From: Elusimicrobia bacterium GWC2_64_44
Lineage (GTDB): Bacteria > Elusimicrobiota > Elusimicrobia > Elusimicrobiales > UBA9959
Direction of reading: 5' to 3'
Assembly: GCA_001799845.1 (NCBI GenBank)
Contig: MGUG01000035.1
Coordinates: 717 to 64,716 of the forward strand
DNA length: 64,000 bases
Shown: piece by piece, positions 12,090 through 63,164 of the stretch
Position numbering within the stretch: position 1 is the first letter of the stretch
Layout: each line of letters opens with the position of its first letter
Program-made: the position numbers and the translations under genes
The notes under the pieces: model-generated
What the model saw: only the letters and a program-made list of their open reading frames with translations
Databases searched by the model: none
What the model was told of the DNA's origin: nothing

Positions 12090-12839
12090 TTATTGGCCGA
12101 AGTCGAAGCCTTTGAACAAATCCTCTTCCGCCTGAGTGCCGCCCGCCGGCGCGGCAGTATCACCTGCCGCCGGCTTGGCCGGCTCCGGTCCCTTGGCGCC
12201 GGGCAGGCTCTGCATGCGGCCCTTGCCCTCGCCCACCGGCTGCACAATGATCTTGCGCACGCCCTCGGCGAAAGCCAGGAAGCCCGTGTCGAGGTTGAAA
12301 TAAAGCCGGAAAGGGGATTCCTTCATCTGCGGCTCGTAGGCCTTGCCCAGGTTCAGCCGCTGCTGGTCCCAGCCCGGGTTATAGACCAGCTTGCCGCGCA
12401 CGTCCACCTCGTTGTCGGTGACCGGCAGCGAAAAGTGTATCTTGAAGAGCCCCATGGTATCGCTGATGCCGGGCGCGAAAGAGAGGTTGATCCCGGCGCC
12501 GGCGTTCTCTTCCATGGCGAAGGCGTCCGCGCCGTCGCCGCCGCCGCCTGCCCCGCCCTTGCCCGCGTCGGGCAGCACCTTCACGGTGACGCCCTCTATG
12601 GGGTTGCCCTGGTAATCGGTGATCACGCCCTGGACGTTGCCGTCGAGGAAAGTGCCCATCTTGGTGGTGGAGAAGAACAGGAACTCGCGTTTGCCGGTGA
12701 CCTTCCTGGTCAGAGAGAGGTCGCCGACGCGGGAGTCGGTGAAATCCACCACCTTCAGGCGCTTAAGCCCGCCCATGCAGCCCGCCAGCGGGGCGGCCAG
12801 CAGCGCAACAGCCAGTAATTTAACGAGTCGCTTCTTCAT
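12090..12839 (-). CDS. lipoprotein (hypothetical), 4 nt downstream of motB
   Basis: Lipobox in MKKRLVKLLAVALLAAPLAGC. A carboxypeptidase-regulatory-like beta-sandwich hint (GVITDYQGNPIEGVTVKVLPD). Pro/Ala-rich C-terminal tail. Confidence 0.7.
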   Translation of the reverse strand: MKKRLVKLLAVALLAAPLAGCMGGLKRLKVVDFTDSRVGDLSLTRKVTGKREFLFFSTTKMGTFLDGNVQGVITDYQGNPIEGVTVKVLPDAGKGGAGGGGDGADAFAMEENAGAGINLSFAPGISDTMGLFKIHFSLPVTDNEVDVRGKLVYNPGWDQQRLNLGKAYEPQMKESPFRLYFNLDTGFLAFAEGVRKIIVQPVGEGKGRMQSLPGAKGPEPAKPAAGDTAAPAGGTQAEEDLFKGFDFGQ

Positions 12840-12843: not shown

Positions 12844-13635
12844 CTAGTTGCCTCCCTCCGCGGGGGCCTCGCCGGCCTCCGCCGGGGTCTCGGGCGCCGC
12901 CGGGGTTTCGGCGGGCGGGGCCGGAGCTTCGCCGGGGCCGGGCAGCTGCGCTTCGGCCCCTTCGGCCGGTTTAGGCGCGGGGGCGTTTACCAGGCCCGGC
13001 GGCTGCGGCGCGTCGGGATAAGCGTTATTCTTGATGAAGAACACCACGCGGCGGTTCGTCTTGCGGTTGGCGACGGAAGTATTGGGGACCTTGGGGTGGT
13101 ATTCCCCATAGCCCACGGCCGCCATGCGCTTGGGCGGGAATTTTGCTCCCAGCATGGACATGACCACGCTGGTGGCGCGGGCGGTGGACAGCTCCCAGTT
13201 ATTGGCATATTCCTTGGTGGCTATCGGGATATCGTCGGTATGACCTTCCACCACTATGTCCTGCTTCTCGGCCAGTTTCAAAAGGATAGGGCTGATCTTA
13301 TCGAGCTGCGCGCGCATCTGGTCGGTGAGCTCGGCGCTGCCGCTCTCGAAGAAGGCCATGTCGCTCTGCTCCTCCATCGTTATGCGCATGCCCTCCTTGT
13401 CCATCGTCACGCTGCCGGACATCTTGCCTTCCTTGATCATCTCCTGGATGTCGGCCTGCGCCTTCTGCATGTCCTTGTTGAGGGCGGCGGAGAGGGCGTA
13501 GAGGATGACGAAGAAGCAGACCAGCTCGGTCATCAGGTCGGCGTAGTTGACCATCCACGGGGGCGCGGGCTCGCCTACGGGCGCCACGCGCCTGTCGTCC
13601 TCCGGGATCATTCCTTTTACGGCTCTTACGGGCAT
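12844..13635 (-). CDS. motB: MotB-type stator protein (OmpA-like peptidoglycan-binding C-terminus)
   Basis: WMVNYADLMTELVCFFVILYALS is the plug/TM segment with the conserved Asp. FESGSAELT...VVEGHTDDIPI...NWELSTARATSV...NRRVVFFI is the OmpA_C-like domain. A Pro/Ala-rich tail follows. Confidence 0.85.
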   Translation of the reverse strand: MPVRAVKGMIPEDDRRVAPVGEPAPPWMVNYADLMTELVCFFVILYALSAALNKDMQKAQADIQEMIKEGKMSGSVTMDKEGMRITMEEQSDMAFFESGSAELTDQMRAQLDKISPILLKLAEKQDIVVEGHTDDIPIATKEYANNWELSTARATSVVMSMLGAKFPPKRMAAVGYGEYHPKVPNTSVANRKTNRRVVFFIKNNAYPDAPQPPGLVNAPAPKPAEGAEAQLPGPGEAPAPPAETPAAPETPAEAGEAPAEGGN

Positions 13636-13653: not shown

Positions 13654-14439
13654 CTAGGCCGGGGTCTCTTTCTTGATGGCGGCGCGGGCGGTCGGGTCCA
13701 GGTAGGCCTTCAGGTTGGCCTCCACCACGCTGGGCGTGGCGCCGCTCTGCAGCAGCAGCACGCCGCGGATGATGATCTCTTTTACGAACAGCTCCTCGTC
13801 GGAGCGGTTCTTGAGCTTGCCGCCCATGGGCATGAACAGCCAGTAGCCCGACGCAAGGCCGTAGAAGGCGGCGGCGAGCGCGAGGGCCATGCGGCGCGGC
13901 ACCTGGGCCACGTCGTCGATGGAGGAAAGCATCAGGATCATGCCGAGCACGGTGCCGATGATGCCGAACGCCGGGGCGTAGGTGCCCAGCGCGTTGAAGA
14001 TCTCGCGGCCGTTCTTGTGGCGCTCGCGGATGAAGTCGATCTCGGTCTCGAGCATGTTGCGGATGAACTCGTGGTCCGCGCCGTCGATGACCAGCTGCAC
14101 GCCGCGCTTGAGGAAGTCGTTGTCGATAGCCTTCACGTCGGACTCGAGCGACAGGAAGCCGTCCTTCTTGGCCTTCTGCGACAGCGACACGAACGTGGTG
14201 ACCAGCTTGGAGGTGTCCTCGCCCTTGGTGGTCAGCACCTTCTTGAGGATCTTGCCGGAGCCGATCACGGAGGAGAGCGGGAAATTGACCAGCAGCGCGC
14301 AGAAGGTGCCGCCCATGACGATCAGGAAGGCCTCGATGTTCATGAAGGGCTTGAAGCCCGCGATGCCTTCCTGCAGGTAGACGGACCCCAGCACGAAGCC
14401 CATGAAGACCACGATACCGCTTAATGTGCCTATATCCAT
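13654..14439 (-). CDS. motA: MotA/TolQ/ExbB-family proton-channel stator protein
   Basis: 261 aa with 4 predicted TM segments. The C-terminal half has the family pattern (AFGIIGTVLGMILML...ALALAAAFYGLASGYWLFMPMGGKL). It is flanked by flbD and motB. Confidence 0.85.
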   Translation of the reverse strand: MDIGTLSGIVVFMGFVLGSVYLQEGIAGFKPFMNIEAFLIVMGGTFCALLVNFPLSSVIGSGKILKKVLTTKGEDTSKLVTTFVSLSQKAKKDGFLSLESDVKAIDNDFLKRGVQLVIDGADHEFIRNMLETEIDFIRERHKNGREIFNALGTYAPAFGIIGTVLGMILMLSSIDDVAQVPRRMALALAAAFYGLASGYWLFMPMGGKLKNRSDEELFVKEIIIRGVLLLQSGATPSVVEANLKAYLDPTARAAIKKETPA

Positions 14440-14454: not shown

Positions 14455-14679
14455 TTACTTTTTCTCGTAACCCTCCAGCGGGTTAATGCATTTCCTTTCG
14501 GAATAAACTTTCTTCTTGTACTCCACGACCAGGGCGATGACCTCGTCCACCGGGTTCCTGACCAGGTAGCGGTTGCCGGTGGCCAGGTTGATCACCGTGT
14601 CCGGCGAGCCCTCCACGCTCTCGATCAGTTCGGCGTTGACCACCACGAGCGAGCCGTTCAGTTTTTCGAGTTTGATCAT
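14455..14679 (-). CDS. flbD: FlbD-family small flagellar protein
   Basis: MIKLEKLNGSLVVVNAELIESVEGSPDTVINLATGNRYLVRNPVDEVIALVVEY matches the FlbD pattern. It occupies the classical position upstream of motA. Confidence 0.75.
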   Translation of the reverse strand: MIKLEKLNGSLVVVNAELIESVEGSPDTVINLATGNRYLVRNPVDEVIALVVEYKKKVYSERKCINPLEGYEKK

Positions 14680-14767: not shown

Positions 14768-17128
14768 TTACTCTTTTTTGCCTTTCAGGGCCCACTTAAG
14801 CCGTCCGCCCAGGGAGGCTTCTATGGCCCGGTATTTTTCCAGCTCGGCGGCCAGCTCGGCGGCGCGGGCGTTCTGAGCGGCGTCCTGCTCGGCGGCGGCG
14901 GACTGCAGGCCGGCGGCCCTGGCCTGCTCGGCCTCCAGCTGGGAGGCGGCTTCCTGGGCCTGGAATTCCATCTGCTGGATCTTCTGCTTGAGGAAAAGCA
15001 GCTCGGATTCGAAGCGGGAGCGGTTCTCGGCCTCGAGGCGCAGGTTCTCGGCCTGGGCCTTCAGGTTCTCTCCCTGCCCGCGGAGGGCTTCGTCGGCTGC
15101 GGCTTTCTGGGCGGCCAGGGCGGCATAACCTTCGCGCAGGGCGGCATATTCCGCGGCCAGGCGCTGGCGGTCGGCCTCCAGGGCGCGCGCCGTCTTCTCT
15201 ACCTCTTCTTTCTGGCCCGCCAGCAGGGCGGCCTGCTCGTCGCGCAGCTTCACCGAAGCCGCGGCGCGGGACATCTCTTCTTCGAAGTGTCTGGCCTTCT
15301 CCGCCAGGGCGCGGTCAAAGGTGGAGGCGTCGCCGGCCAGGCGGCGGTTCTCGGCCTCCAGGCGGGCCACCGCTTCCTGCGCGGCGGCCGCGGCGGCGCG
15401 GGCTTCCTTGAGCTGGTCCGTGTAGACGGACTCCAGCTGCCGCTTCAGCGCGGACTTCTCTTCCTCGGCGGAAAATTCGTACTTCATGCGCAGCTGCGAG
15501 AGCTTGGCGTCGAAGTCGGCCTGGCGCTCCCCGGACAGCCGGGCGAGCTCGGCCTGCTGGGCGGCGGCCTGGCGGGCCAGTTCGGCCTGCTTATCGGCGG
15601 CTGCCTTGGCCAGCTCGGCCTGCTTATCGGCTGTCACCCGGGCCAGCTCGGCCTGTTTCTCGGCGGTCACCCTGGCCAGCTCTTCCTGGCGGGCGCGGTT
15701 GAGCTCGGAGATCTTTTCCTCGTGGCGGCGGTTGAACTCGGCGGTCAGCTCGGTGCGGACCTTCTCCACTTCAGCCGCGGCGCGGGCGGCCATGGCCTCC
15801 AGCTCCGCCTGGTGGGCGCCCTTTATGCCGTCGCTCTCCTGCCTGAGCTTGCGCAGCTCCTCGAGCTGGCCGGCCATGTTCTGGGCGAGCTGCATCTTCT
15901 CCAGCTTCAGCTGGCCGCGCTCCTTCTCCAGCACGGCGTTGATGGCCTGCACGCGGGCCACAAAGCCCTTGATCTTCATGAGCTCGGAAATGGCGCGGAT
16001 CTTCTCTCCGGACACGTCGGCCAGGAGTTTCTCTTTCTCCTGCAGCTGGGCCTCATAGCCCTCGGCGGCCTTGCGCAGGGCCTCGTTCATCTCGGAATTC
16101 TTGCGGTCGGACAGCGTGCCGATCTCGGCCTGCAGGCGGCCTATCTCGCCCTGCACTTTCTCGGCCTCGTAGCGGACCTTCTCCTCGCGGTGGGACGCCT
16201 CCAGCCGGGAGGTCTCCTCGCGGCCGCGCAGGGAGGCGTTCTCGGCCTTGAGGTCAGCGATCTCGCGCTCCTTCTCGGGCATCATCTTGATCCAGCCCTC
16301 GATGGAGGCCTTTTCGCGCTCGGCGCGCGCCACGTCGTCGCGCAGCTTGGACGCCTCGCGCTCGGTCATGGACTTCTCGAGCGAGACCTTGCGGAACTCG
16401 TCCTCTACGTCGCGCAGGCGCTCCGCGGAGGTCTTCAGCGAGCGGATCGTCTCTTCGCGGCTTGAAATTTCCTTCTGCCACTGGGCTTTCTCGTCCAGCC
16501 AGCGGCGCTCCATCTCCTGGAGGCGGTAGATGAAATGGCCCTCGGTGTCGCGGCCCTGGGTCTCGCGCTCGGACATCTGGTTCTTGAGCGTGGTCATCCA
16601 GGTCTCGCGCTCCTGCGCCAGGCGGGATTCCATCTCCTTGATCTTGGACTTCAGCGTGAGGCGCTCCTCCTCGACCTCGTGGTCGCGGCGGTCGCGGCGC
16701 ATCTTCTCCTGTATATCCTTAAGGGAGGTCTCCACGCGGGAGGAGAGCACTTCGTCCTGCTGGCTCTTCAGCGTGGCCAGCAGCGCCTTCTCCTTCTCGG
16801 CGGACAGGAGCTTCTCCATGTCGTTGATCTTCTTCTCCAGCTTGTCCTTCTCCTCCTGCATGCGGCGGGACTCCGCCTCGGCGGCGTCCCTCTGCGCCTG
16901 CGTGGGGCCGGCGGGAGGCGCGGGCTGCTGGAAGTTTCCGGGCATGGCCGGGAAGGCCGGCGCCTGCATACCGGGCAGCTGGGGCATGGACGGCAGAGAA
17001 GGCTTGCCGCCGGGAGGAAGCGGCGGCAGATTGGGTTTGGCCATGCCCGGGGGAAGCGGGGGCATGCCAGGTTTAAATTTGTTCTTGTCCTTGTCGTCCA
17101 TAAACATTGCGCCTAGAGCCGGTATCAC
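14768..17128 (-). CDS. polyproline N-terminus + very long coiled-coil protein (hypothetical)
   Basis: The ORF-track start at 17128 is GTG; an ATG at 17107 (MFMDDKDKNKF) is an alternative. The N-terminus is PPLPPGMAKPNLPPLPPGGKPSLPSMPQLPGMQAPAFPAMPG. About 700 aa of E/K/R/A/L-rich heptad-like sequence follows. It includes the tandem units AEKQAELARVTADKQAELAKAAADKQAELARQAAAQQAELARL. Confidence 0.75.
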   Translation of the reverse strand: MIPALGAMFMDDKDKNKFKPGMPPLPPGMAKPNLPPLPPGGKPSLPSMPQLPGMQAPAFPAMPGNFQQPAPPAGPTQAQRDAAEAESRRMQEEKDKLEKKINDMEKLLSAEKEKALLATLKSQQDEVLSSRVETSLKDIQEKMRRDRRDHEVEEERLTLKSKIKEMESRLAQERETWMTTLKNQMSERETQGRDTEGHFIYRLQEMERRWLDEKAQWQKEISSREETIRSLKTSAERLRDVEDEFRKVSLEKSMTEREASKLRDDVARAEREKASIEGWIKMMPEKEREIADLKAENASLRGREETSRLEASHREEKVRYEAEKVQGEIGRLQAEIGTLSDRKNSEMNEALRKAAEGYEAQLQEKEKLLADVSGEKIRAISELMKIKGFVARVQAINAVLEKERGQLKLEKMQLAQNMAGQLEELRKLRQESDGIKGAHQAELEAMAARAAAEVEKVRTELTAEFNRRHEEKISELNRARQEELARVTAEKQAELARVTADKQAELAKAAADKQAELARQAAAQQAELARLSGERQADFDAKLSQLRMKYEFSAEEEKSALKRQLESVYTDQLKEARAAAAAAQEAVARLEAENRRLAGDASTFDRALAEKARHFEEEMSRAAASVKLRDEQAALLAGQKEEVEKTARALEADRQRLAAEYAALREGYAALAAQKAAADEALRGQGENLKAQAENLRLEAENRSRFESELLFLKQKIQQMEFQAQEAASQLEAEQARAAGLQSAAAEQDAAQNARAAELAAELEKYRAIEASLGGRLKWALKGKKE

Positions 17129-17290: not shown

Positions 17291-19243
17291 CTATCTCCCT
17301 ACGCTGGCCTTGAAACCGGCCAGCCATTCGGTGGCGGCGGGGTCACCGGACAGCGCGGCGTACTTCTCGTAGGCGGCCACGGCCTCGTCCACCCGCTGCA
17401 GCCCGTAATAGGCCGCGCCCAGGTACTGCCAGGTAGTCGCGTCGCCGGGGTTCGCGGACGAGGCGTATTCCAGGTACTGCAGGCTTTCCTGCACCTGACC
17501 CTGGTTGTACATATTGATGCCGGCGTCGGCGTACTGCTTCGCCTGCGCGGCCTGCTCCGGAGAGGGGCCGGCGGGGGCCTCTTCCTTCGGAGCGGCGCCT
17601 CCTGAAAGCTTCTCGTACTTCCTGCGGCGCTCGTCGCCCGAGGACATCTCGGCCCCGTCGATCAGGTAGATCTCCTGCGAGGAGCCGCCGCGCGAGGCGA
17701 TCTTGCCCTCCGCCTCCAGCGCCTTGATAGCGTCGAGGATCTTCATCTGCGCCTCGTCCTGCTGGGCCTGCGTGACGTTGCCGGAGTACTCCATGATCTC
17801 CTTGATGGCGTTCACCGCGCCCGAAGACATGTTGGCGAAGAACTTCTCCGAGATGGCCGGGTCGGCCTTGGCCACGGCGCGCGCGATATCCTCGTTGTTG
17901 AGGGCGCGGATAATGGTCTGGATGTCGCGGTCGGCGAACTCTATGATATCCTCGAACATCAGCACGATGCGCTTGACCTTGGCGTAGATGTCGGGCTTCT
18001 GCGTCTTGAGGTACTCTATGATGTTCTTGCGCGTGGCCGGGTCCGAGTCCTCGAGCATCTTCGACAGGCGCTCGATGCCGCCCATCACGAAATCGACGTT
18101 CTCCTTTATATCCCTGTCTATGGCGTCTATCTGCTCGCGCGTGGCCTGGCGCACCGTCAGCGCCTCCAGCGCCACGCGGCTCTGCATCTCCACGGGCAGC
18201 ATGGACAGCGCCTGGCGGGAAAGGTCCGGCTTCATATAGCTCAGCACTACGGCTATCACCCACGGGTCCTCTTTGCGCAGCAGGAACAGGTAGATGAGCC
18301 GCTTGAGGTTTTCCTCGTTCAGGTAAGTGAACGGTTCAAATTTCTTCATACTCTCGTCCTCTTCTTCCTTCTTCTCGTCCTCTTTCTGGAGGAAGTTCAT
18401 GTCTATGCTCTGGTGGCCCTCGGTCTCCTCCTTGCCCTCCTCATCGCCGCCGCCGCCTCCGCCCTCTTCCCGCTTGTCCTCTATGTTGACCTCGGCGCCG
18501 GGCTTGGCCATCAGGGCTTTGATGTACTTGCGGAAGAAGCCCCACAGCGGGCCGAACAGGAACAGCAGCAGCAGCAGGAACAGCAGCGCGTAAAGCAGGG
18601 GCAGGTAGACCGACGGCTTCTTGAGGTCGTCCAGGGGGTTAGCCGCCTTGAACTTGGTCGGTTTGAACAGCACGGTGGGCGCGTCCTTCTTGCGTATCTT
18701 GTAAGGCAGCAGGAAGTCGTCCACCCGCTCGCGGGCCAGTTTGACCGCGGCGGGCTGCAAAGTTTCGTCGTGGATGACGGTGAGCTGAAAGCGGGTGATC
18801 TCGGTCTCCACGCCGTAGCGGATCTCCTGCACGCCCTTGGCCTGCTGGGCCTGCTGGCCCGAGGCGGCTTCGGGGCGCTTGTTCTCCCCCCCCAGCACGG
18901 AGCGGGGCTTGGGAATGCCGGGCAGGATGAAATCGGTGTCGGGGCTGTCGGCGCCGGCGCCCTTCTCCTTGTACTTCTGCATGATGCCCAGGCCTTCCTT
19001 GGTCTGCTCGGCCTTCTTGGCTATCACTTCCAGTTCCACGTCGGCGAAGACGAAGGACCGGTCGGCCCCGAGGATGGGGTCGAGGATTTCCTTCTTGATC
19101 TTGGTCTCGGCCTCCCGGCGCAAACTATCCTGCTTCTCGAGCAGCGAAGTCTCCATCAACGGATTATCCGGGGCGTCCGCGGCATACATCCGCGCCGCCC
19201 CGAAGCCCGCAATGAGCGCCAGGACCGCAAAAAGCTTCCTCAT
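17291..19243 (-). CDS. membrane-anchored FliF(C-terminal ring/TM part)::FliG(middle+C domains)::TPR fusion protein
   Basis: Signal peptide MRKLFAVLALIAGFGAARMYA. FliF-like ring-building segments (ETKIKKEILDPILGADRSFVFADVELEV; EITRFQLTVIHDE). TM helix VYLPLLYALLFLLLLLFLFGPLW, then an acidic linker. FliG_M-like EDPWVIAVVLSYMKPDLSRQALSMLPVEMQSRVALEAL (EHPQ-box position). FliG_C-like RDIQTIIRALNNEDIARAVAKADPAISEKFFANMSSGAVNAIKEIMEYSGNVTQAQQDEAQMKILDAIKALEAEGKI. C-terminal TPR (AQAKQYADAGINMYNQGQVQESLQYLEYA...TWQYLGAAYYGLQRVDEAVAAYEKY). Confidence 0.75.
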   Translation of the reverse strand: MRKLFAVLALIAGFGAARMYAADAPDNPLMETSLLEKQDSLRREAETKIKKEILDPILGADRSFVFADVELEVIAKKAEQTKEGLGIMQKYKEKGAGADSPDTDFILPGIPKPRSVLGGENKRPEAASGQQAQQAKGVQEIRYGVETEITRFQLTVIHDETLQPAAVKLARERVDDFLLPYKIRKKDAPTVLFKPTKFKAANPLDDLKKPSVYLPLLYALLFLLLLLFLFGPLWGFFRKYIKALMAKPGAEVNIEDKREEGGGGGGDEEGKEETEGHQSIDMNFLQKEDEKKEEEDESMKKFEPFTYLNEENLKRLIYLFLLRKEDPWVIAVVLSYMKPDLSRQALSMLPVEMQSRVALEALTVRQATREQIDAIDRDIKENVDFVMGGIERLSKMLEDSDPATRKNIIEYLKTQKPDIYAKVKRIVLMFEDIIEFADRDIQTIIRALNNEDIARAVAKADPAISEKFFANMSSGAVNAIKEIMEYSGNVTQAQQDEAQMKILDAIKALEAEGKIASRGGSSQEIYLIDGAEMSSGDERRRKYEKLSGGAAPKEEAPAGPSPEQAAQAKQYADAGINMYNQGQVQESLQYLEYASSANPGDATTWQYLGAAYYGLQRVDEAVAAYEKYAALSGDPAATEWLAGFKASVGR

Positions 19244-19325
19244 ACAGTATTTATTTTATCTTTATCCTATTACAGAAAAGTTTCAGAATCGTTCATTCTT
19301 TACGGCTGGGGGCGCTCGTGGTTGG

Positions 19326-19612: not shown

Positions 19613-19633
19613 CGCCGGCCTGCCCCACCCCTC

Positions 19634-21250
19634 TTAGCGCACCTGCTTGAGGAAGTTGCGGACCATGGTGTTGTTGGGGTTGATCTCCACGACCTTCTCC
19701 CAGATGACCTTGGCCTTCTCCTTCTGGTCCATCAGGTAGAAAGAGCTGCCCATGATCTCGAGCGCGGTCTCGTTGTTGGGCTCGAGGTCCAGGATGTCCT
19801 GCGCGCGCTTCATGGCCAGGTCGTACTTGCCGTCATAGATGGCCTGGCGGGCGTCATAGGTGCGCTGGTCTATATAGGTAAAGATCTCGGGGCCCTCGGG
19901 CTTGCGGGTCAGCTCGCTCACGCCGGCCTCTTTCTCCACCATGTTCAGCAGCGACAGCAGGCGGTCGTTCTTCGGGTCCTTGTTGAAGGCGTGGCGCAGC
20001 ACGTTGACCGAGGCGCGCAGGTCCTTGCCGTCCACGTAGGAGATGATGCCGCGGCGGGTCAGGGTGGGCACCTCGTCGCCGCCGGTGGCGTCCGGCACGT
20101 AGTCGATGGCGCCCTGCAGGCGGGTCACCATGCGGCGGATCTCGGCGTTGCCGGGGTCGGCGTCCATCGCGGAGCGCAGTTTCTCCATCGCGCGGCCGAA
20201 GTAGCCGGACTTGAAGTACTGCAGCGCCTGGCGGATGATCTCGCGGACCTCGCGGTCGTGCTTGGCCTTGTTGCTCTGGCCCAGGCGCATCGTCACGGAG
20301 AAGCGGGTGGTGGTGCCGAGGGCGTGCACGCCCTGGGCGATGTCGAAGCCCAGGCTCTTGTACTTGATGCCGAGGCCGAAATCGGCCTCCTGGATCTCGG
20401 GGGAACCCATCACGCCGAAGCGCAGGGCGCTCCAGTACATCAGCCAGTACTCGCCGCCGAAGCGCCAGTTCATGTCGGCGCCCTGGGGCTTGACCAGGTC
20501 GAAGCCGAACAGCAGGCTGCCCTTGAACAGCGACAGCGCCTGGCCGAACTTCAGGGTCAGGGGCAGCTTGTCCTCGGTGTCGCCCGAGGCCATGGAGAAG
20601 ACGTTCTGGATGCCGATGGCGGCGCGGTAGGTCTTGGAGAACTTCTGCAGCATCGCGATGTCGATGGCGTTGAAGGAGTCGGCGGAGGTGTCCAGGGTGC
20701 GGGAGATGTTCTTGGCCATGATGCCGAAAGAAAGCTTATCGGAGACCTCGCGGCCCCAGGAGAAGGCCAGCGCGCGCTCCACGCTGTCGAAGGTGCCCAG
20801 GGTCTTGATGTCGATGATCTCGTCGCCGGCCGGGTTGGCGGTGATGGAGATCTTCTCAAAGCCCACCGACTTCAGCTGGGTCATGCTGACGGCCCAGGTG
20901 CCCTTGCTGGTAGTGGGGTGCGCGTAGGTGAAGAAGTTAAGGGTGGTGTCCGCGAACAGGGTGGCCTGCATCGCGGTGAACTCCTTGCGCTCGAGCATCG
21001 TCAGCGCGGCGGGGTTCCAGTAGGAGGCGGAGGCGTCGTCGGCCACCGCGAAGAAGGCGCCGCCCATGCCCAGGCCGCGGGCGCCGGCGCCGTAGCTCAT
21101 GAAGGCGCCGGGCTGGCCGCCGCTCTGCGCCAGGGCGTTAACGGCCGAAAAGGCAATAAAAAACCCCATGGCGAGGCTGAAGCGCATTATACGCTTCGTT
21201 TCAGCCCATATAGCCAAGGGGGCAAAGGCAATACAAAGATTGCTTTTCAT
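19634..21250 (-). CDS. FadL/PorV-like outer-membrane beta-barrel fused to a C-terminal TPR domain
   Basis: The likely true start is the ATG at 21187 (MRFSLAMGFFIAFSAVNALAQ signal peptide). The N-terminal barrel signature is AGARGLGMGGAFFAVADDASASYWNPAALTML, the FadL/TodX/PorV-type motif. Alternating beta-strand pattern runs to about aa 325. TPR-like repeats follow (YFKSGYFGRAMEKLRSAMDADPGN; YDGKYDLAMKRAQDILDLEPNN; KEKAKVIWEKVVEINPNN). Confidence 0.75.
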   Translation of the reverse strand: MKSNLCIAFAPLAIWAETKRIMRFSLAMGFFIAFSAVNALAQSGGQPGAFMSYGAGARGLGMGGAFFAVADDASASYWNPAALTMLERKEFTAMQATLFADTTLNFFTYAHPTTSKGTWAVSMTQLKSVGFEKISITANPAGDEIIDIKTLGTFDSVERALAFSWGREVSDKLSFGIMAKNISRTLDTSADSFNAIDIAMLQKFSKTYRAAIGIQNVFSMASGDTEDKLPLTLKFGQALSLFKGSLLFGFDLVKPQGADMNWRFGGEYWLMYWSALRFGVMGSPEIQEADFGLGIKYKSLGFDIAQGVHALGTTTRFSVTMRLGQSNKAKHDREVREIIRQALQYFKSGYFGRAMEKLRSAMDADPGNAEIRRMVTRLQGAIDYVPDATGGDEVPTLTRRGIISYVDGKDLRASVNVLRHAFNKDPKNDRLLSLLNMVEKEAGVSELTRKPEGPEIFTYIDQRTYDARQAIYDGKYDLAMKRAQDILDLEPNNETALEIMGSSFYLMDQKEKAKVIWEKVVEINPNNTMVRNFLKQVR

Positions 21251-21375: not shown

Positions 21376-21403
21376 ATTATAGCAGATAATATGGGTTTGT
21401 CAA
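21376..21403 (-). promoter_or_regulatory. sigma70-type promoter A (TTGACA-16 nt-TGcTATAAT)
   Basis: On the minus strand the -35 is TTGACA (21403..21398), the spacer is 16 nt, and the extended -10 is TGC-TATAAT (-10 at 21381..21376). The same architecture and spacing occur at 63342..63369. Confidence 0.7.
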
Positions 21404-21712: not shown

Positions 21713-24700
21713 CTAGTGAATTACGCCCACCTTGCGCATGATGACCTTGCTGCCCTTGGGGCTGGAGGCCTTCACGCGCACTATATAGCCGCCCTTGCCC
21801 ACCACGCCGCCCAGGCCGTTCTTGCCGTCCCAGAGCACGTGGTTCGGGCCCAGCTGACCGCCGGGGCCGCCGCTGGAGAACTTGAATTCGCGCACCACGT
21901 AGCCCAGCAGGTCGTAGATCGTCAGCGTCACCTCGGCGTTATCGTTGAGGGTATAGGTCAGGTCGACGCGGCCTTCCACGCCGCCCTTGCGCAGGTCCAC
22001 CGGGTTCGGGTAGCTGGAGACCTTGGAGAGCAGCTCCTCGCCTATGGTCGTGCCGGCCGGGGTGGAGACCGTGGACCATTCCGAATGCTCGCCGGCGAAG
22101 TTCCAGCTGCGCACGCGATAGGCGTAATACTGGCCCAGCGGCCGCGGGGTCTCGCCGGGCACGCCCGGGTCGCCCACGGTATAGATGTTGTTCAGCGCGC
22201 CGCCGGTCTTGAAGCCCGGGATGGCGGCGATGGTCTTCCAGACGGGGCTCGTGCCCTCGCGCTCCTGGATCTCGTAGGACATGATATTGGACTCCAGGTC
22301 CTGCGCCTGGTTCCACTTCAGCGCGTAGGCCTGGCCGGAGGCCACGCCCTTGGCCACCTGCGGCTCCGGCGCCCCGGGCGTGGTCGGGTAAGTGGTGTCT
22401 ATGCGGTAGATCAGCACCGGCACGCCGTTCTCGCTGGGGATGTACTGGCCCGAGGCCATCAGGCCGCGCACGGAGATGACGTAGGCGCGGTCGGACACCG
22501 TCTCGCCCCAATAGGTATGCGGGCCCTTGAACGAGCCCTGCACGCCGCGCTCCACGATCTTGAAGGTCTTGGCGTCGAGCTTGTTGACCAGCATGATCTC
22601 GTTGCCCACGTAGGCGATGCCCTCCGCGGCGAAACCCTCCGTGGAGTCCACCGTGAACGAGGAGGAGTTAACCTCGATGCGGCTGATCAGCTTGGTGAAG
22701 TGGCCGGGCGACAGCGCCACATTGGTCACCTTGCCGGTCAGCGCGGTGCCCACGGTCTGCCAGGAATTCTTGATGCCGGTCGGCTCGGCGTAGTTGCCGC
22801 CCAGCGAGACCTCGTAGGAGACTACAGGGCCGGAGGCCGGGTTCCAGAGGGCCGTCAGCTCGGTCGTCCTGGCGGACCAGGCCGAGGGCACGGCGCCCAG
22901 CTCGGAAACGGCCAGTTCGACGCGGGAGTTCCTCACGTTGTCGCCTATGAAGTAGAGCGGCTTGCCGGTGCCGTCGTCCACGATGCGGTCGGACACGTAG
23001 TCGAGGTTGGTCTCGAAGTCCAGCAGCCCGTCGCCGTCTATGTCGAAGGTGGGCAGGCCGGAGTTGTTCAGCGTGACGTTGAGGCACTTGCCCGAGCCGT
23101 AGAAGTCGAAGTTATCGGGCCGGCCGTCGCCGTTGATATCTATCAGCGGCTCGTCGGCCTTGCAGCCCGAGGCGGTGTAATTGTAGATCCAGCCCTTCCA
23201 GCCGGCGGGCACGGCGCCGTAGGAGACGCTGGCCGTGTTGGCGATGGGCAGGTTGCCCGCGCCCAGCACCACGTTGCCGCTGGAGTCGGTCATCGCGTAG
23301 GCGGGGTAGCCGTTGGACGCCAGCATGATGTTCTTGTACACCGGCGTCAGCGGGATGACGGCCGGGGCGATCAGGACCTGGTTGGAGGTCATCGGGTAGC
23401 TGTCGGAGAAATTCTGGCCGGCGGCCAGCGGCAGCCCGCCCAGGCCGCGCATGTCGTTGAAGGTGCCCAGCGACAGGCTGGCCAGGTGCCCCAGGGTGTC
23501 CGCGCCGGAGAGGTCGGTGGAGGAGCTGACGTCGGCGGAGAGGTGCAGCACCAGCCCGCCGGTGGACACTATGACGTAAGGCAGGTTGCCGTCCATGATG
23601 GTGACCGTGACCTGGCTCTCGAAGGGGTTAGTGGCGGAATTCACCGCGTAGCCCAGGCGGTAGTCCGAGATCGGGCTGAACGCGCCGTCGCCGTCGTCCT
23701 TCCACAGCGAGACCACGGCCAGGTCGCCGTCGCCGTAGCCCGCGGTGGCGCTGCTGATGGAGCCCCCCTGCGTGAAGTTGATCTGGCCTATCGCCACGAA
23801 GTCCGAGAGGGTCTCCAGGTTGAAGCTCAGCATCGGCACGTTGCGGGTGTTCTTCTCGGCCGACTTGGGCGAGACATTGGTCCCCGAGACGGCCAGCGTG
23901 ATGGCGCGGATGGGCACCAGGCTGGAACTGAACGGATAGATGTCGCTGTAGTTGCCCTTGGGCAGCGCCTTCGTGATCCCGATATAGACCGTCGGGGAGA
24001 TGTCGTGCGGCGCGTTGACCGTGAGCCAGGACTTGTCACGGATCATCAGGCCGACCTTGTTGGCCTTGATGGCCATTTCGCCGATGTCATAGACGGCGAA
24101 GAAAGTCTGCGCCAGCGGGCTCAGCGTCTGCGTCTGCGACAGCGAGACCGTGATCTGGGTGTTCAGCGCGTTGTCCTGGTCGAACAGGTCCACCTTGCGC
24201 ACCCTGGCCCCGGCGGGATGGTTGATCAGCGGCGTAATGAAGTCGCCCAGTTTCTCGCCTCTCGAAGTCACGTTCAGGTACGGCTTGCCGGAACCGTCGA
24301 TGCCGGAGCCGGAGTAAGTGATCAGTTCGGCGTCGCTGACATAGAGGCGGCCGGAGACCGGGAAGCCCTTGGTGGACTCCAGGACCAGCTGGAACGGCAC
24401 CGTATCCGTGGAGGTGAACGGCCTGTAGAGGGTGCTCCTGGCCTCGGAGATGTTGACGTCGTTCACGTCGAGCATGTCGTTCTGGTTCGAGTCCTGGTAG
24501 ATGGACACGAACTTGACGTCGGTGTTCTTGCCGAACGGCGCGTTCGGGTCGTTGGAGGCGCCGGTGCGCTGCACCTTTACGGCGCTCCAGCGGGCGTTGC
24601 CGGCCTCGGTGGTCAGGTTGAAGCGCACCATCGGCACGCCCACCTGCGCCTGGCCTACGCCGCCGCCCTGCACCAGGTCGGCGGCCATGTCGTTGGCGCC

Positions 24701-27700
24701 CAGCATAACGGGCGACGGGATCTCCCGCACCAGCACCGGGACGGTGTTGATGGGCCAGGTGGACAGGTTTATAGTGTTCGGGATGCCGATCGTGAAATTG
24801 GCAGCGGAACCGATGTTCAGCCCGGCGCTGGACCCGACGATGGCGAACTGGGACAGGTCGTAGCTGACGAAGGCGCAGACCGGCGTGGTGGTTATGACTA
24901 CGGGCGTCTTCAGCACTATATTGATAGTGCTCGAGGAGAAAGCCTCGTTGCCGTAGCTCATCATGTTGGGATAGACGCCGGCAGAGCTGCTGGACGTATC
25001 CACGGAATCCAGCAGACAGTTATCGTTGGAGTCCCGCCAGACCTTGATCAGGTCTATGTCGGAATCGTTGGCCGTGCCGAGGCGGTTGACCTTCACGGCC
25101 TCCAGCAGCGCGGAGGTCTTGTCGACGCTCATGCGCATGGACAGCAGGCCGACGTTCTTGTCGTTCTGCACGGCGGAGACCGGCGAAATATCCTCGGGCA
25201 CCAGCGACACGGTATTGAGAGTGGGCATCACCACGGTGTTGGGGCCCGCCACCGGGTTCAGGAACTGCGCGTTGTGGCCGGAGTTGTCGGGCCCGAAGAA
25301 GAAGCTGGACTCGAACGGGATCTCGGCGTTCAGCACGTCGTTGGGCGGCGTCAGCTGCGCGTGCGAGAACTTGGAGGTCTTGTCTATGTCCATCGACACG
25401 AAGATCGCCGTCGGGGTGGAACTGACCACCACGTAGTCCTGGTTGTTGAGAGCCGGGTCCGCCACGTAGATGGTGGCGCGGCCCACCGGGTCGTTCACGC
25501 CGAAGCGGCCCGTGCCTATCACGATGTCGGAGGTGTTCATGCCCGTGGCCGGGTCCCTGTCGAACACGCCGTTGCCGTTGTCCTTCCAGACGCGGATCAT
25601 ACCCACGTCGGAGTCGTAGCCGTTGAGGCCTGCCGGCTGCTTGCGGTTCAGGCGGAAGCCGCGCCAGCGCACGCCGTAGCCCGAGGTCAGCAGCGTCATC
25701 TTCATGTAGGGGTAATTATCCCAGCCCTGGTAGACCATGCCGCCCAGGACAGCGCCGTTAGCGTGCGCCAGCACCGGGGTGTTAAAGACGCCGCGCGTCA
25801 CCAGGGTGATGGCGCCCAGGGCAGTGCCCTCGTAGCGGACTATCTCGCCGTCCGCCATGGCGTAGCCGGCCGCCGGCAGGCCGGCGGTGGAGGTGACCAG
25901 CCAGGCCGGGTCCATGGTGCCGGCCGCGGCGCCGCCCGGCACGTCCAGCGCGAGGCGCACCGAGGGGATGGACGCGCCGCCGTCGGGCGCGAAGAGGGGC
26001 TCGGTATTCACGGTCACCGTGCTGGGAGCAGAAATGATCTCCCGCACCCTGGAAGAGAAGGTCAGGTTGGAATTAAGCGCCGAGAAGCTGTTGGGCAGCG
26101 ACAGGGAATTCTTTACCGGGTCCTCGGCGACGGGGCTGTTCTGCGGGAACGACTCCGCCTTCAGGTAGGCGCCCAGGTAGCGCGGGTTACCCAGCGAGTC
26201 GTTGGGCATGGCCGACTCGCGGATGTCGTAGGTCAGGAAGTAGCGCTTGGAAACCGCGAGCGTCTGGGACTGCAGCGAGGTGACCACGCGCCGCTCCGCG
26301 CCCAGGTCCACCCTGGCCACCAGCGGGCCGTAGATGGTATTGCCGAAGGTGCCCGTGCCGACCTGCTCGTCGAGGGCGCCCAGGAAGCCGTTGTCGTCCT
26401 TGTCGTACCAGACCTTAACGGCGGAGATATCGCTCACGGCCGAGCCTTCCTTGATGACGGTGCCGGTCGCGTACACCAGCATCCAGCGCCACATCGCGTC
26501 GGCCACGTCCGTCTCCACCGTAAAGGACAGGATGGGCTGGTTCTGGGCCTTCTGCTGCAGCGTGGCGCCGGTGTACGTGTCGGAGGCCTTCACGGTCACC
26601 TTGTCGGAATACTCCGAGACGCGGCCTATCAGCGAGAGCGTCTTGCCCGGGGAGGTGACGCCGATATTGCCGGCGCTCATGAACTTGGGCGCCTCTATCT
26701 GGAAATAGTCGGTGGTGCGGATGGCCATGCCGATGTAGGCAAAGTTGGACACATTGGCCAGAGGATCTATGTCGTAAGTTACGAAGTAGTCTTTGGATTC
26801 CTTGTAAAGGACCTGGCCGTCCATGCTGCCGCCGTCGCCCACCAGGGGCAGGACGGCCTGGCCGGAGATAATGGTGCCGCTGCCCCAGACCACCTGCACG
26901 GTACCCTCGGCCCCGCGGGTAATGCCGCCGAACTCGTTGTTCAGCACGTCCACGGTGGAATAGTAGACGACTTCCTTGAGCGACGGGTCTTCCTGGTTGT
27001 CGTTGACGATCAGGCGGCCGGGCGCGCGCGGGAAGGGGCTGTCCGCGGGGAAGAATTTCTGGATGTCGCCGACGCGGATCACCGTATCGGTAGAGACCAG
27101 GGGCAGCCGCAGCGAGTCGTACGGGAAGGTGCGGTTGCTGACGCCGACCAGCAGCACCTCGGTGTCCTTGACCGTGGTGGTGGTCTGCAGCAGCCCGTCG
27201 CCCGTCGAGTCCTGCCAGATGCTGATCTTCTTAACGTCGGTGACCTTGTTCCACGCGGCGGTATTGCCGTTCTCGGCGGCGGTCACCCAGCGGTCCAGCT
27301 TGAGGCCGCGCCAGACGGCGGAACCGATAGTGTCCTTGATATTGAGCGTCAGGCGCGCCACGGGCTTGTTCACGTCGTTCTGCGTCACGAACGAGGGTTT
27401 GCTGAAGTCGTTCGGGGCCGCCTTGTTCACGTCGGACAGGTAGACCATGTCAGAGGTGGCGAACAGCGGCACCGTGGACGACACGATGGGCGCGAAGGAG
27501 CCGACGACGCCGTCGATCAGGCTGATGCCGGAGTTCTCCAGGCGCGCGCCGTGCGTCAGGTTGGGGATCGCGTCCGTAGCGAACTCGTAGACGACGTAGA
27601 AGGTCTTGGTGCTGATGGAGACGGCGCCGTCCACGCCCGGGTTATAGAGCGGCAGCACGAAGGTGCCGGGGTCGGCCGGGTCGAAAGTGGGCGGGTTGGC

Positions 27701-30700
27701 CGGGTCCGTTATTTCCTTGTCGATGGCCTGGTCGAAGACCGTCGGGGTGCTCTCGTCCACCTCGAGGAAGAGGCGCACGCTCTTGAGGTCCTGGCCGGAG
27801 CCGGTGCCGGTCTTGATGATCTTGAACGACTTTATCGTACCCACGAAGTTGTCGGTCCAGGCCTCTATCTTCAGGAAGCCGGCGCGCTCCACGCTCTGCT
27901 CCACGTAGTTATACTGCGCCGCGTTGACGCCGGCCTGCCACCAGGCGCCGATATCGGTGCCCTTGACCAGCACGGTGGCGGGCTGGTTGCGCACCGGCGA
28001 GGTGGCGGTCTGGATCGGGAAGTTGTTGTAGGCCACGCCCACGAAGGTGGAGTTCAGCACCACGAACGACGGGTTGTTCATCACCAGCGCGAAGCTGCGC
28101 GGCGTGGCCGCCACGGTGGACATGCGTACCGCGAAGTAGAAGTTGCGCGGCGTGTTGGAGACGATGGCCGCGGTGGAGACCTTGGTGTTCAGGTCGTCGA
28201 ACCTCCAGCCCTGCAGGTCGGTGTCGTAGGTGCCGCTGGACATGAGGATGTCGGTGGGAGAACCGCCGAGCACCGCCTCGCCGTCGAAGACGCCCAGCTG
28301 GCCGGCCGTCTCGTTATCCTTGTACATGTTGATCTGGATAATGTCGGAGTAAGCCAGCGTGCCCGAGCTCTTGATCTGCACGGACTTCAGGTAGGCCGGC
28401 GGCGCGCCGGCCGGCGAGGTCTGCATGGTCAGGCGCAGCATGGGCACCGGGGCCGGGATGTCGGCTATCACGCCGTCGCCCTGGTAGATGGCGTACTTAT
28501 TGATGCCGATGGAGGTTTTGGAGACGGGCAGCGGGTCCTCGGGCGAGAAGTCGCGCGGAGTTATCACCAGGCCCGACAGCACCACGTCGCCGCTGGAGCC
28601 CTGCGGCAGGCCGCGCGCGCTGTCCAGGGTATAGCCGTAGATCTGCGTCTGGTGGTAGTCGGTCACGTTGACCTTCAGCGTTTCCACCATCGTGTCGTAG
28701 ACCATCAGCGTGCGCTCGCCCTGGTCGGCGGGGACGAAGATATAATCCGTGGTGTTGTTGATGTAGTCGCGCAGGTCGGCCGACCCCTTGGAGTTGGTCG
28801 TCATCTTTATCTTGCCGGTGTAGTACATGCCGTTGACCGGGTCGCCGGTGGCCACGTTGCCGAACTGGTCGCGGGCGCGCAGGATCAGCGAGCCCGGGGT
28901 CTGCACGCGCAGGGGGCTGGCGAGCGTGTAGCCATGGTGCAGCGTGAAGTAGGCCGCCGTGCTGGGCGTGATGTATTGCTCCTGGGAGATGGGCGCCAGG
29001 TTGACCCCGTAGGCGGCTATGAAGGAGTTGGCCGTGATCGGGGCGGTGCCCACGAGCTTGTCCCACACGTAAATATTGGCGAAAGAGTAGCCCGCCGGGA
29101 TGTCCAGGTCGAGCGGGTTGGTCTTCAGCAGCTTCCAGCTCGGGTTGGAGTCCAGCACGGGCGCGGCGGGGTCGATGCCGCCGAAAGTGGTATTGCGCGT
29201 GGACGAGAAGCGCACGCTGACCGGCGAATTGGTGGTCGTATTGTTCTCGAAGCTGTCCTTGAGCGCCACCGTCACCACGGTGGGCACGGTCACGCCGGTA
29301 ACGAAGTCGGCGTACTGCGTGGTGGTACCGGCTATCAGGCGGCGCGGCGGGGTGTAGAACATCACGTGGTCCGGGGGCGCGGGCACCACGGTATAGGAGG
29401 AGATGGCCGGCAGCCAGCCCTTGGGATAGGCGGGCAGGTTGTCCACCCGGAGCTGATGCGTCGTGGGCGAGACCAGCGTGTCCAGCAGGTAGAAGCTGGT
29501 GGAGGCCTGGCCCAGCGCCATGTTGGCCGTGCCGGGCTGCGGCGCGAAGGTGTCCTTGTCGGGCGCGGAGAACCTGACGTTGCCCAGGGAGGTGGACTCC
29601 AGGGAGAAAGTCACGCCCGCGCCCGCCGCATCCTCCTGGCCGCCTGCCACCGGGGTCGGGTTGCCGTAATGGTCCTCGATGGACAGCAGGAACATCTGCG
29701 AGGTCACGCCGGCGGTCAGCACCTGGCCCGCGTTGTAGCTGACGTTGATGCGGTAGGTCAGGTCGGGAACTATCACCACGGACTGGGTCGAGGCCGACCA
29801 GCCTTCGCGGTCCGGAACGGCGACCCTGATGACGGGCCGCACCGGAGCGGCGGAGGACGGATAGACGGTGGAAGCCGTGGTATCCATGTAATAGAAGGTC
29901 GTCATGAAGGCGTTCAGCGGGATGTCAACGTAGGACACCGTGGACGAGAAGACCGGCGGGAAGGCGCCGGACACCGTGCTGGAGGCCGAGAAGGAGAACG
30001 CGTCGTTGATCAGCGAGGACTGGCGGGTGAAGGTGGACAACACCACCTGCACCGGGGCGGTGGCCACGGAGGGGTTGGCGAACATATCGCGCAGTTCGGC
30101 CTTGAAGACCTGCACATCGCCGAACTTGTCGGTGATCTTGCCGGCCGTCATCGAGCGGGGATCGTTGCCGAAGGCCACCTGCGCCACCTGCGCCGGGTTG
30201 ACCCGCAGCTGGTGGATGGCCGGCTGCATGGAGCCGGACCGGGCCTCTATCTGCCAGTAGCCAGGCCTGTTGTCCTCGAAGGTGTTGGCGGCCGGCGAGG
30301 TGCCGGAATACGAGGAGGTCCTGTCGTGGTAGCGGAAGGACGCCCTGGTCTGGTTGGGCGGGATGATCACCGCGTTGATGAACTGGTCGTGCAGCACGGT
30401 GCGGAAGCCGTAGTCGCCCACGTTGCCGAAGGTGGCCATGGTCCGGCCGAGGCCGGTATGCACCGCCACCTGGGCCGCCGGGAGGCCCAGGTAGACGCCC
30501 GTCTCGCCCTGCTTGGTCACGTTGTCGAAGTCGTCGCGGCGCTCCACGGTGAAGAACGCGCCGGTGGCGCCCATTTCCTGGATGCCGACCAGGGCTTCCG
30601 TCTGGCTGGAGTAATAAACAAGCTTGGTCGGCGTGCCGCCGGTGGTGGTCAGCTGGCCGCTCAGGTTCTGGCGGGCGGCGGCGTAGGTGCCGTAGGAGGC

Positions 30701-62737: not shown

Positions 62738-62806
62738 AGGCAAACAAAAAACGACCAGACCTTGCCCAGGCGTTTTTTTCCAGGGGCAAAGCACGGATAT
62801 TAAACC

Positions 62807-63149: not shown

Positions 63150-63164
63150 GATACTTCAAAAAAC

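Follow-up and report, generated by a model that had tools for sequence, protein, structure and literature searches.

In the Bacteroidota, proteins bearing type-B C-terminal domains (CTDs) stay on a dedicated PorP/SprF-like barrel, as when SprF holds the giant adhesin SprB (PMC9143113), and SprF is tied by its periplasmic C-tail to a motor-driven track (PMC12635249). In Treponema pallidum, TP0548, TP0859 and TP0865 each combine a FadL-like barrel with a presumptively periplasmic C-terminal helical domain that contains tetratricopeptide repeat (TPR) motifs (PMC8407342). Free-living Elusimicrobiota are reported to lack flagellar structural genes, yet they carry motAB, flbD and fliG, whose role has been called 'unclear' (bioRxiv 10.1101/2022.07.08.499144). 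Here we analyze a 64,000-nucleotide stretch of contig MGUG01000035.1 from Elusimicrobia bacterium GWC2_64_44 (hereafter the window), focusing on a gene (19634..21187) for a PorV/PorQ-family outer-membrane barrel with a C-terminal TPR domain; this gene and all other window genes and regulatory elements described below lie on the minus strand. With moderate confidence, and by analogy, we propose that its product may be a dedicated outer-membrane carrier or anchor for CTD-bearing proteins, with the TPR domain coupling it to a proton-driven motor and the whole under the control of cyclic di-GMP (c-di-GMP).

Sequence comparison places the barrel in the kinship of PorV and PorQ. The protein scores 111.2 bits against the NCBIfam PorV/PorQ family model NF033709 (cutoff 90), with residues 50–322 aligned to positions 6–325 of the 326-position profile, and NCBI's Prokaryotic Genome Annotation Pipeline (PGAP) names several of its orthologs 'PorV/PorQ family protein'. 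When run against every PDB sequence at E ≤ 10, a barrel-only profile made from 15 orthologs returned a single match, Flavobacterium johnsoniae PorV (6h3i_F, E 1.1e-6), in an alignment that spans the N-terminal motif and the last strands; a full-length profile search agreed. Neither FadL nor TodX emerged from the barrel profile among PDB sequences, even at this permissive threshold. Models of narrower scope fell short of their cutoffs, including PorV2 (NF052325, 78.9 versus 325 bits) and the FadL equivalog (NF007988, 14.4 versus 585 bits), and three Pfam models remained below gathering for the barrel: PorV (PF19572, 12.5 versus 27 bits), Toluene_X (PF03349, 24.1 versus 29.7 bits) and UPF0164 (PF03687, 19.8 versus 21.4 bits). 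The window protein had no match to PF11751 (PorP/SprF), DUF560 or TPR_Slam in Pfam.

An AlphaFold2 (AF2) model built from 40 orthologs (predicted local distance difference test score, pLDDT, 77) contains, according to DSSP, 14 beta elements over residues 68–302 followed by 11 helices over residues 306–516. The predicted 14-stranded barrel (20282..20986, in the 517-aa form of the protein) has the generic FadL-type fold in this model, with FadL, TodX, CymD and OmpG as top Foldseek matches (E 1e-8 to 1e-6; 1.7e-8 for 2r89_A and 2.5e-7 for 3brz). Ahead of it lies a conserved N-terminal plug or hatch motif, GGQPG..YG.GAR.LGMGGAF..ADDA.A.YWNPA.L, which includes WNP(A) (20996..21127) and aligns with residues 32–60 of PorV 6h3i_F. 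Seventeen of its positions are invariant in 40 orthologs (G23, G24, G33, G35, R37, L39, M41, G42, G43, A44, F45, D50, D51, A54, W57, N58 and P59); AF2 modelled the motif poorly, with low pLDDT. The TPR-type helical domain (19640..20272) carries Pfam matches above gathering to TPR_19 (31.2 bits), TPR_14 (29.6 bits) and TPR_2 (28.4 bits), and is conserved no less strongly than the barrel: about 47 of its positions are invariant among 40 orthologs of 53–93% identity. Because the number of strands is even, this domain should face the periplasm.

Much of this had been anticipated by an earlier note on the window, which was made from the sequence without database searches. Its kinship with PorV is borne out by NF033709 and by the sole PDB match, its short barrel by a region of about 285 aa with 14 predicted strands, and its C-terminal TPR extension of about 210 aa by the 11 helices, on the periplasmic side expected from the even strand count. 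The comparison of Toluene_X with PorV models that it had suggested gave a divided answer, with both Pfam models below threshold, the broad PorV/PorQ family model passed and the specific PorV and PorQ equivalogs out of reach.

Like PorV (6H3I chain F) and PorQ, then, the window protein belongs to the NF033709 family, has a predicted FadL-type 14-strand barrel, aligns with PorV in its N-terminal motif and last strands, and is tied to immunoglobulin (Ig)-fold CTD proteins, the one in the window matching the tails of PorU and PorZ. Unlike them, its barrel is about 285 aa rather than about 370 aa, with shorter loops, it adds a 210-aa putatively periplasmic TPR domain, and it falls outside both equivalogs. 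Its operon contains FliG and MotAB relatives, whereas PorV and PorQ are served by PorLM/GldLM, and we saw no core of a type IX secretion system (T9SS) in the window or flanks.

Full-length orthologs of 51–98% identity occur in 134 species-level genomes, as found in a scan of one genome per species. We retained 80 of these genomes, most of them titled Elusimicrobia or Elusimicrobiota and a handful only 'bacterium'. Among the 120 matches listed, the named orthologs were likewise from Elusimicrobia, with the exception of one partial protein from a Spirochaetes-labelled metagenome-assembled genome and a few labelled 'bacterium'. The open reading frame (ORF) is far beyond chance, given these orthologs and an E value of 7e-32 to the PorV family model.

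More distant relatives of the barrel are abundant, and an exhaustive barrel-only search at E ≤ 1e-3 recovered 10,225 cluster representatives. Among the top 150 matches, about half had lengths of 500–690 aa or more and carried the barrel N-terminally. When we examined the 81 proteins of at least 400 aa among these 150 (Pfam matches at E ≤ 1e-3 for UPF0164), TPR repeats were present in 56, so a barrel followed by a C-terminal TPR domain is a widespread architecture. The same 81 proteins matched UPF0164 (53), Toluene_X (25), PorV (13), PorP_SprF (7) and TPR_Slam (5). The suggestion in the earlier note that PorV-TPR fusions are undescribed was therefore overstated, as a PGAP family name exists and the barrel-TPR architecture of T. 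pallidum is published (PMC8407342). Like TP0548, TP0859 and TP0865, the founding UPF0164 proteins, the window protein has a 14-strand FadL-like barrel (here predicted) and then a TPR-bearing helical domain; unlike them, it has 11 helices in place of a three-helix bundle, and its UPF0164 score is below threshold. Nutrient uptake has been proposed for the treponemal proteins, with no CTD, motor or riboswitch context reported. The barrel-TPR protein itself is thus already known in kind, as a PorV/PorQ family member with an architecture seen in Treponema.

The limits of the gene call for one adjustment. The earlier note had given the ORF as 19634–21250, and these ends are exact, on the minus strand: the frame encodes 538 aa from the farthest ATG, and its translation contains the quoted motif GARGLGMGGAFFAVADDASASYWNPAALT. 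Translation most likely begins at the ATG at 21187 (MRFSLAMGFF..., 517 aa), because most orthologs are 511–527 aa long, because tblastn matches in 80 genomes begin at that methionine, and because the ATG at 21250 is only 5 nt past a riboswitch aptamer; we rejected the latter start on these same grounds. From 21187, the protein begins with a signal peptide (21128..21187; MRFSLAMGFFIAFSAVNALA, followed by QS) that was read from the sequence and whose place is kept in the ortholog alignment, ending with ALA before QS. A terminator-like hairpin (21162–21178) falls within the codons of this signal peptide.

Rfam identifies the leader of the barrel gene as a c-di-GMP-I riboswitch aptamer (RF01051; 21255..21333, 60.2 bits versus a gathering threshold of 35). 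About 40 nt upstream of it lies a promoter-like site of the sigma-70 type, TTGACA-16-TATAAT with TG (21376..21403), which matches the consensus at 12 of 12 positions; four promoter-like sites were found in all, compared to 0.4 expected in shuffled sequence. A second c-di-GMP-I riboswitch (63074..63152; 55.8 versus 35 bits), 91% identical to the first and preceded by a near-consensus promoter (TTGACA-16-TATACT, ~63369..63342), forms the leader of a unit comprising a HEAT-repeat protein and a giant gene. Since promoter and riboswitch stand directly upstream of it, the barrel gene heads a transcription unit of its own. We rejected co-transcription of the barrel gene with the giant gene, given the consensus promoter and the riboswitch between them. 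Using a covariance model made from both window copies, we found the riboswitch upstream of the barrel ortholog in each of the 76 loci whose upstream sequence exceeds 300 nt, at a median of 67 nt before the start. In distant relatives the model gave a good match at one locus (L087) and weak matches at two others (L083 and L085).

The next gene upstream of the barrel gene is a continuous ORF (21713..62098) for a giant secreted protein, 13,461 aa long and bearing a Sec signal at its N-terminus; in the direction of reading, the barrel gene comes after it. The earlier note had placed the barrel gene directly after a giant gene ending in a T9SS-like CTD, and this placement holds, with the CTD recognized by FlgD_ig. 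The predicted CTD, about 105 aa with a T9SS-CTD-like Ig fold (21716..22030), scores 28 bits against FlgD_ig (gathering 27) and, against TIGR04183 (cutoff 23), 18.7 bits within a 323-aa query and 22.5 bits in isolation. Related CTDs form a family in which TIGR04183 matches 14 of 16 at E ≤ 0.01 and the PorU and PorZ models match 15 of 16 through their C-terminal tails; a profile of the family searched against the PDB finds FlgD and the PorU CTD. A hidden Markov model (HMM) of the CTD, run on the fetched loci, always matched at the extreme C-terminus. Conservation is also higher in the CTD than in the 1,000 aa before it, with median identities of 82 versus 72% among close genomes and 57 versus 38% among distant ones. 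A homolog search of protein databases with a 115-aa CTD query returned only 10 short fragments and was uninformative. We scanned the first 5,000 and last 5,000 of the 13,461 residues of the giant protein against Pfam, and these 10,000 residues yielded one Big_13 match (29.2 bits, gathering 27), a sub-threshold Big_3_4 in the first 5,000 and the C-terminal FlgD_ig. The protein is rich in alanine, threonine, serine, glycine and valine, contains only 39 cysteines and has almost no Pfam matches in the residues scanned.

The pairing of a CTD protein with the barrel recurs across genomes. Counting as adjacent any CTD-ending ORF whose stop lies no more than 1.5 kb upstream of the barrel gene, we found a CTD protein directly upstream in 48 of 67 ortholog loci, comprising 38 of 40 in the clade of at least 70% identity and 10 of 27 in deeper clades. 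We also examined nine contexts of distant barrel-TPR relatives (27–40% identity), and in six of these a CTD protein adjoins the barrel-TPR gene. The passengers are unrelated to one another: Kelch proteins of 450 aa, beta-helix proteins of 1,100 aa, an Ig-like protein of 3,200 aa and giants of 11–13 thousand aa. Wherever their N-terminus lies on the locus it resembles a signal peptide, and the CTD is at the extreme C-terminus in each. Passengers that are unrelated, a C-terminal tag that they share and a barrel that adjoins them make up the pattern of a sorting signal with a dedicated receptor.

Individual distant loci illustrate how this arrangement varies. In L088, a 10,968-aa CTD protein is accompanied by barrel-TPR, FliG-TPR, FlbD, MotA and MotB genes, and in L086 (10001–17091) a 3,116-aa CTD protein is followed by a 1,361-aa barrel bearing a huge TPR array, then ExbB, two ExbD and TonB. 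In L084 CTD giants lie to either side, and a second barrel is present. L091 has beta-helix CTD proteins of 1,094 and 1,097 aa on both sides (6675–9959 and 12016–15309), and in L089 (3815–5182) and L090 (11830–13164) the barrel-TPR gene precedes a Kelch protein of 445–455 aa with a CTD; in the latter two loci a gene with sCache, HAMP and nucleotide-cyclase domains follows. L083 has a CTD protein 6.5 kb upstream and FliG-TPR downstream, and L085 and L087 have FliG-type genes downstream and no CTD protein on their short contigs. Proton-motor genes of two kinds thus follow the barrel in five of the nine contexts, with the module of the window present in relatives at 34–40% identity (L083, L085, L087 and L088). 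In L086, which comes from an uncultured lineage, a Ton-type motor with a TonB_C protein occupies the place of MotAB/FliG in Elusimicrobia. One close genome (L036, 2952–7985) has a 1,678-aa protein with a diverged copy of the CTD between the giant gene and the riboswitch/barrel gene, which may be a second cargo.

Like SprB–SprF and PorP–PG1035, the window encodes an outer-membrane barrel beside its own CTD-bearing and often giant adhesin. SprF and PorP stay bound and anchor their cargo, as the window barrel would under our proposal. The differences are that PF11751 matches 7 of the 81 long relatives and not the window protein, that the window CTD resembles type A and FlgD_ig rather than type B, that the putative coupling element is a TPR domain rather than a twin-cysteine tail, and that the motor parts are of flagellar type.

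Downstream of the barrel gene, 45 of the 47 loci whose flank is long enough share one order of six genes, encoding a FliF-C/FliG-MC/TPR fusion, a coiled-coil protein, FlbD, MotA, MotB and a lipoprotein. The first (17291..19243) encodes a 650-aa membrane protein that matches FliG_C (86.6 bits) and FliG_M (41.8 bits). Its layout runs from a signal-like helix through a periplasmic domain of ~185 aa, a transmembrane segment (residues 209–239) and an acidic linker to a cytoplasmic FliG_MC region and TPR. The FliG equivalog TIGR00207 scores 113.6 bits, well under its cutoff of 226.7, and FliG_N is sub-threshold and falls on the wrong region. The Pfam domain YscJ_FliF_C was matched in 6 of 11 N-terminal domains of this family (best E 1.3e-5), and the L085 homolog has a precomputed match to it. 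An AF2 model of the protein (pLDDT 67, predicted TM-score 0.26) found FliG MC structures by Foldseek at E 1e-10 and the FliF model 9a67_A at E 5e-5, and its FliG_C domain superposes on FliG of the MotAB–FliG complex (8ucs_H) with a TM-score of 0.92. A profile of the FliF-like N-terminal domain searched against PDB sequences produced only transmembrane-helix noise (LptG, E ~0.7). The link to FliF follows from the YscJ_FliF_C matches and the one Foldseek match, and domain matches and modelling together identify this product as a putative fusion of FliF-C and FliG-MC rather than an ordinary FliG. Such a fusion of FliF to FliG outside a flagellar locus appears to have arisen naturally, and its periplasmic domain resembles a ring-building motif.

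The remaining genes of the row are a 786-aa, proline-rich at the N-terminus, coiled-coil protein with no transmembrane segment, predicted to be cytoplasmic (14768..17128; weak SMC-like matches, position kept in 45 of 47 loci), a 74-aa FlbD homolog (14455..14679; 49–91% identical to genes in the same position, those of L001 and L002 carrying Pfam PF06289 FlbD), a MotA/PomA-type stator protein (13654..14439) and a MotB-type stator protein (12844..13635). The MotA homolog matches MotA_ExbB at 99.5 bits and the MotP, MotA and PomA models at 211–235 bits, under their equivalog cutoffs. The MotB homolog (MotB_plug 45 bits, OmpA 60 bits) has a plug, a transmembrane segment with the conserved channel aspartate in YADLMT, and an OmpA-like peptidoglycan-binding domain. 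Last in the row is a 249-aa lipoprotein (12090..12839) with the lipobox LAGC and a conserved position, in which a weak CarboxypepD_reg-like stretch can be seen; neither it nor the 786-aa coiled-coil protein matched a family. The order FlbD–MotA–MotB is typical of spirochaete and firmicute flagellar operons. In common with the flagellar motor, the row has FliG_M/FliG_C, a FliF C-terminal region and the MotB channel aspartate; unlike it, the row lacks FliG_N (FliF and FliG being fused), has an extra C-terminal TPR and shows apparent partial changes in the charges of the torque helix. Genes for FliM/N, an export gate, a rod, a hook or a filament were not found near it.

These observations revise the picture drawn by the earlier note in several respects. 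The shared leader that it had placed before the barrel gene is real and is the c-di-GMP-I riboswitch present in 76 of 76 loci, though its tie to the motor module had been missed. A cargo-handling role gains support from context (48 of 67 loci and six of nine distant relatives), but the giant gene is not a constant neighbor; the invariant partners are the riboswitch and the FliG/FlbD/MotAB module, which had not been linked to the barrel, and the protein is an equivalog of neither PorV nor PorQ.

The analysis establishes the family assignment, the predicted topology, the identity of the riboswitches, the conserved order of the genes and the recurrence of CTD proteins beside the barrel. We infer the binding of CTDs by the barrel, the coupling of TPR to motor, the task of the motor and the outer-membrane conduit, the carrier or anchor role resting on analogy with SprF/SprB and with PorQ/PorV, which hold PorZ/PorU. 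Under our proposal, the barrel would bind the CTD of its neighbor, here the 13,461-aa surface protein, and anchor or carry it as cargo. Through its periplasmic TPR tail, the barrel would be connected across the periplasm with a proton-driven motor in the inner membrane. The same operon encodes this motor, in which the FliF-C/FliG-MC fusion could form a rotor-like ring and MotA/MotB the stator, along with FlbD, the coiled-coil protein and the lipoprotein. The motor would drive the cargo's extraction, its anchoring or its lateral movement, and in L086 ExbBD–TonB would replace FliF-C/FliG–MotAB as the coupled motor. Because both units sit behind c-di-GMP-I riboswitches, for which a ligand response is predicted, the whole set is expected to respond to c-di-GMP, which would switch both the barrel/motor operon and the giant-protein unit. 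c-di-GMP is the usual attach-or-move signal.

The chain that results is reminiscent of Bacteroidota T9SS and gliding, with a Sec-exported CTD adhesin, a putative outer-membrane carrier barrel and an inner-membrane proton motor of the MotAB/ExbBD superfamily that would act across the periplasm. The Bacteroidota chain consists of the GldLM/PorLM motor, the GldKN hub, SprA and carriers, core families that we did not see in the window or flanks; the window instead has MotA/MotB, a FliF-C/FliG fusion and FlbD, with control by c-di-GMP riboswitches.

Several findings weigh against the carrier or anchor proposal. The protein is far below the cutoffs of the PorV (NF033710, 38.7 versus 250 bits) and PorQ (NF033711, 46.9 versus 220 bits) equivalogs, and Foldseek ranks FadL and TodX above PorV, which is outside the top 50. 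The CTD of the window is itself just below the TIGR04183 cutoff. In 19 of the 67 ortholog loci no CTD protein lies directly upstream, and the CTD HMM found no other CTD ORF within their ~10-kb flanks; four of the nine distant relatives have no motor genes nearby. In the FliG torque helix, compared with the E. coli motif, the charges appear to be partly replaced, with glycine apparently in place of R281 and isoleucine in place of D289. No translocon was identified at the locus, and a plugged 14-strand barrel offers no obvious route for 13,461 aa.

Unequal ties among the neighbors suggest a first alternative, which we regard as unlikely: that the barrel-TPR protein is only the outer-membrane part of an orphan FliG/MotAB machine, such as a new kind of device for surface motility or in the envelope, or an accessory to type IV pili, and that the CTD protein is merely co-regulated by c-di-GMP. 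The motor row (45 of 47) and riboswitch (76 of 76) are tied to the barrel more tightly than the giant gene is (48 of 67), the barrel and giant units have separate promoters and riboswitches, and in three loci (L002, L046 and L081) the complete module stands behind unrelated upstream genes. What speaks for a carrier instead is the persistence of CTD adjacency where motor genes are absent (L084, L089, L090 and L091), along with the binding of CTDs by the barrel's nearest characterized relatives.

The missing translocon raises a second alternative, that the barrel is itself the conduit for CTD cargo in the manner of Slam (type XI secretion) or TpsB, with the TPR domain receiving unfolded substrate and the motor energizing transport. 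In Slam systems, a periplasmic TPR domain and a 14-strand outer-membrane barrel surface-expose cargo encoded by an adjacent gene, and cargo genes adjoin here as they do for Slam and two-partner secretion. The likeness extends to the joining of a putatively periplasmic TPR domain to a 14-strand barrel and to the TPR_Slam matches in 5 of the 81 long relatives, a Sec-signal cargo does need an outer-membrane route, and neither the window nor the flanks showed a translocon gene of the T9SS. We nevertheless consider a conduit improbable: the conserved plug motif suggests an occluded lumen, as in FadL and PorV, and the N-terminal TPR and C-terminal DUF560 of Slam are in the reverse order here, in a different barrel family with no DUF560 match. 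Slam cargo also consists of lipoproteins recognized by a C-terminal barrel domain, unlike the CTD proteins of these loci; the only other setting in which CTD-type signals are known is that of the SprA/Sov translocon, and a separate translocon may exist elsewhere in the genome, since our search covered the window and flanks.

Membership of the PorV/PorQ family and a CTD resembling T9SS type-A CTDs and PorU/PorZ tails could also indicate an ordinary PorV or PorQ of a complete, unrecognized Elusimicrobia T9SS, with the motor row a coincidence. This seems very unlikely to us. The equivalog scores are far from their cutoffs, solved PorV has no TPR extension, and coincidence does not account for 96% synteny with the MotAB row. 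PorK/L/M/N, SprA and PorU were not seen in the 64-kb window or in ~1.4 Mb of locus flanks. Two reviews confine T9SS to the Bacteroidota or to the Fibrobacteres–Chlorobi–Bacteroidetes group (PMC7463736, PMC12398890), and the literature we searched contained no report of T9SS or PorV in Elusimicrobia.

Least probable of all, and in our view very unlikely, is a FadL/TodX-type uptake channel for hydrophobic compounds whose TPR domain hands substrate to periplasmic carriers, as proposed for T. pallidum: overall fold (best Foldseek matches FadL, TodX and CymD), a hatch motif with NPA, sub-threshold Toluene_X and UPF0164 scores and UPF0164 matches in 53 of the 81 long relatives all fit, but there is no significant sequence match to FadL or TodX in the PDB or by the FadL equivalog, the barrel is smaller and has a TPR tail, and the conserved context is adhesin, motor and c-di-GMP, with no lipid or aromatic catabolism genes nearby.

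If the carrier or anchor proposal is taken a step further, the locus may represent an undescribed trans-envelope machine of Elusimicrobiota and some related uncultured lineages, in which a c-di-GMP-switched, flagellum-derived mini-motor would drive export, anchoring or movement of CTD proteins by means of a PorV-like barrel-TPR. We put this forward only tentatively. Such a machine would handle cargo that includes adhesins of 10–13 thousand residues, would have ExbBD–TonB substituted in at least one lineage, and could amount to an apparatus for secretion or gliding, built from different motor parts yet convergent with the T9SS of Bacteroidota. In the literature searched we found no description of the combination of riboswitch, barrel-TPR, FliF/FliG, FlbD, MotAB, lipoprotein and CTD giants in a phylum for which flagella are reported to be lacking, and a preprint on giant genes does not cover this locus.

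Should the coupling of barrel to motor be real, the logic of a CTD signal and a carrier barrel, so far bound to the Bacteroidota T9SS, would reach a distant phylum and new motor types. It would also provide a function for the orphan fliG, flbD and motAB genes of non-flagellated Elusimicrobiota and place flagellar rotor and stator parts at work outside the flagellum. The compact, riboswitch-marked module of seven genes is searchable and testable. The finding that a barrel joined to TPR, reported as unique to the FadL-like vaccine candidates of T. pallidum, is widespread may in turn bear on the role of the treponemal proteins.

Other features of the window lie around this system. Between the second riboswitch and the giant gene is a 211-aa periplasmic HEAT-repeat protein with a signal peptide (62105..62740; HEAT_2 119.9 bits). 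A second signal-peptide HEAT-repeat protein, of 635 aa with an OmpL47-type domain, is encoded beyond the lipoprotein gene (10000–11907, minus strand), so two HEAT-repeat proteins bracket the system; the 635-aa protein is not kept at that position in L001 and L002. The stretches that flank the barrel gene (19250–19630 and 21440–21712) contain related inverted-repeat units. One has 37-nt inverted-repeat arms (19389–19425 and 19522–19558), positions 19361–19379 are 95% complementary to 21616–21634, and 21521–21539 pairs with 21695–21713. Though without an Rfam match, these flanking repeats resemble elements of the repetitive extragenic palindrome or miniature inverted-repeat transposable element (REP/MITE) type.

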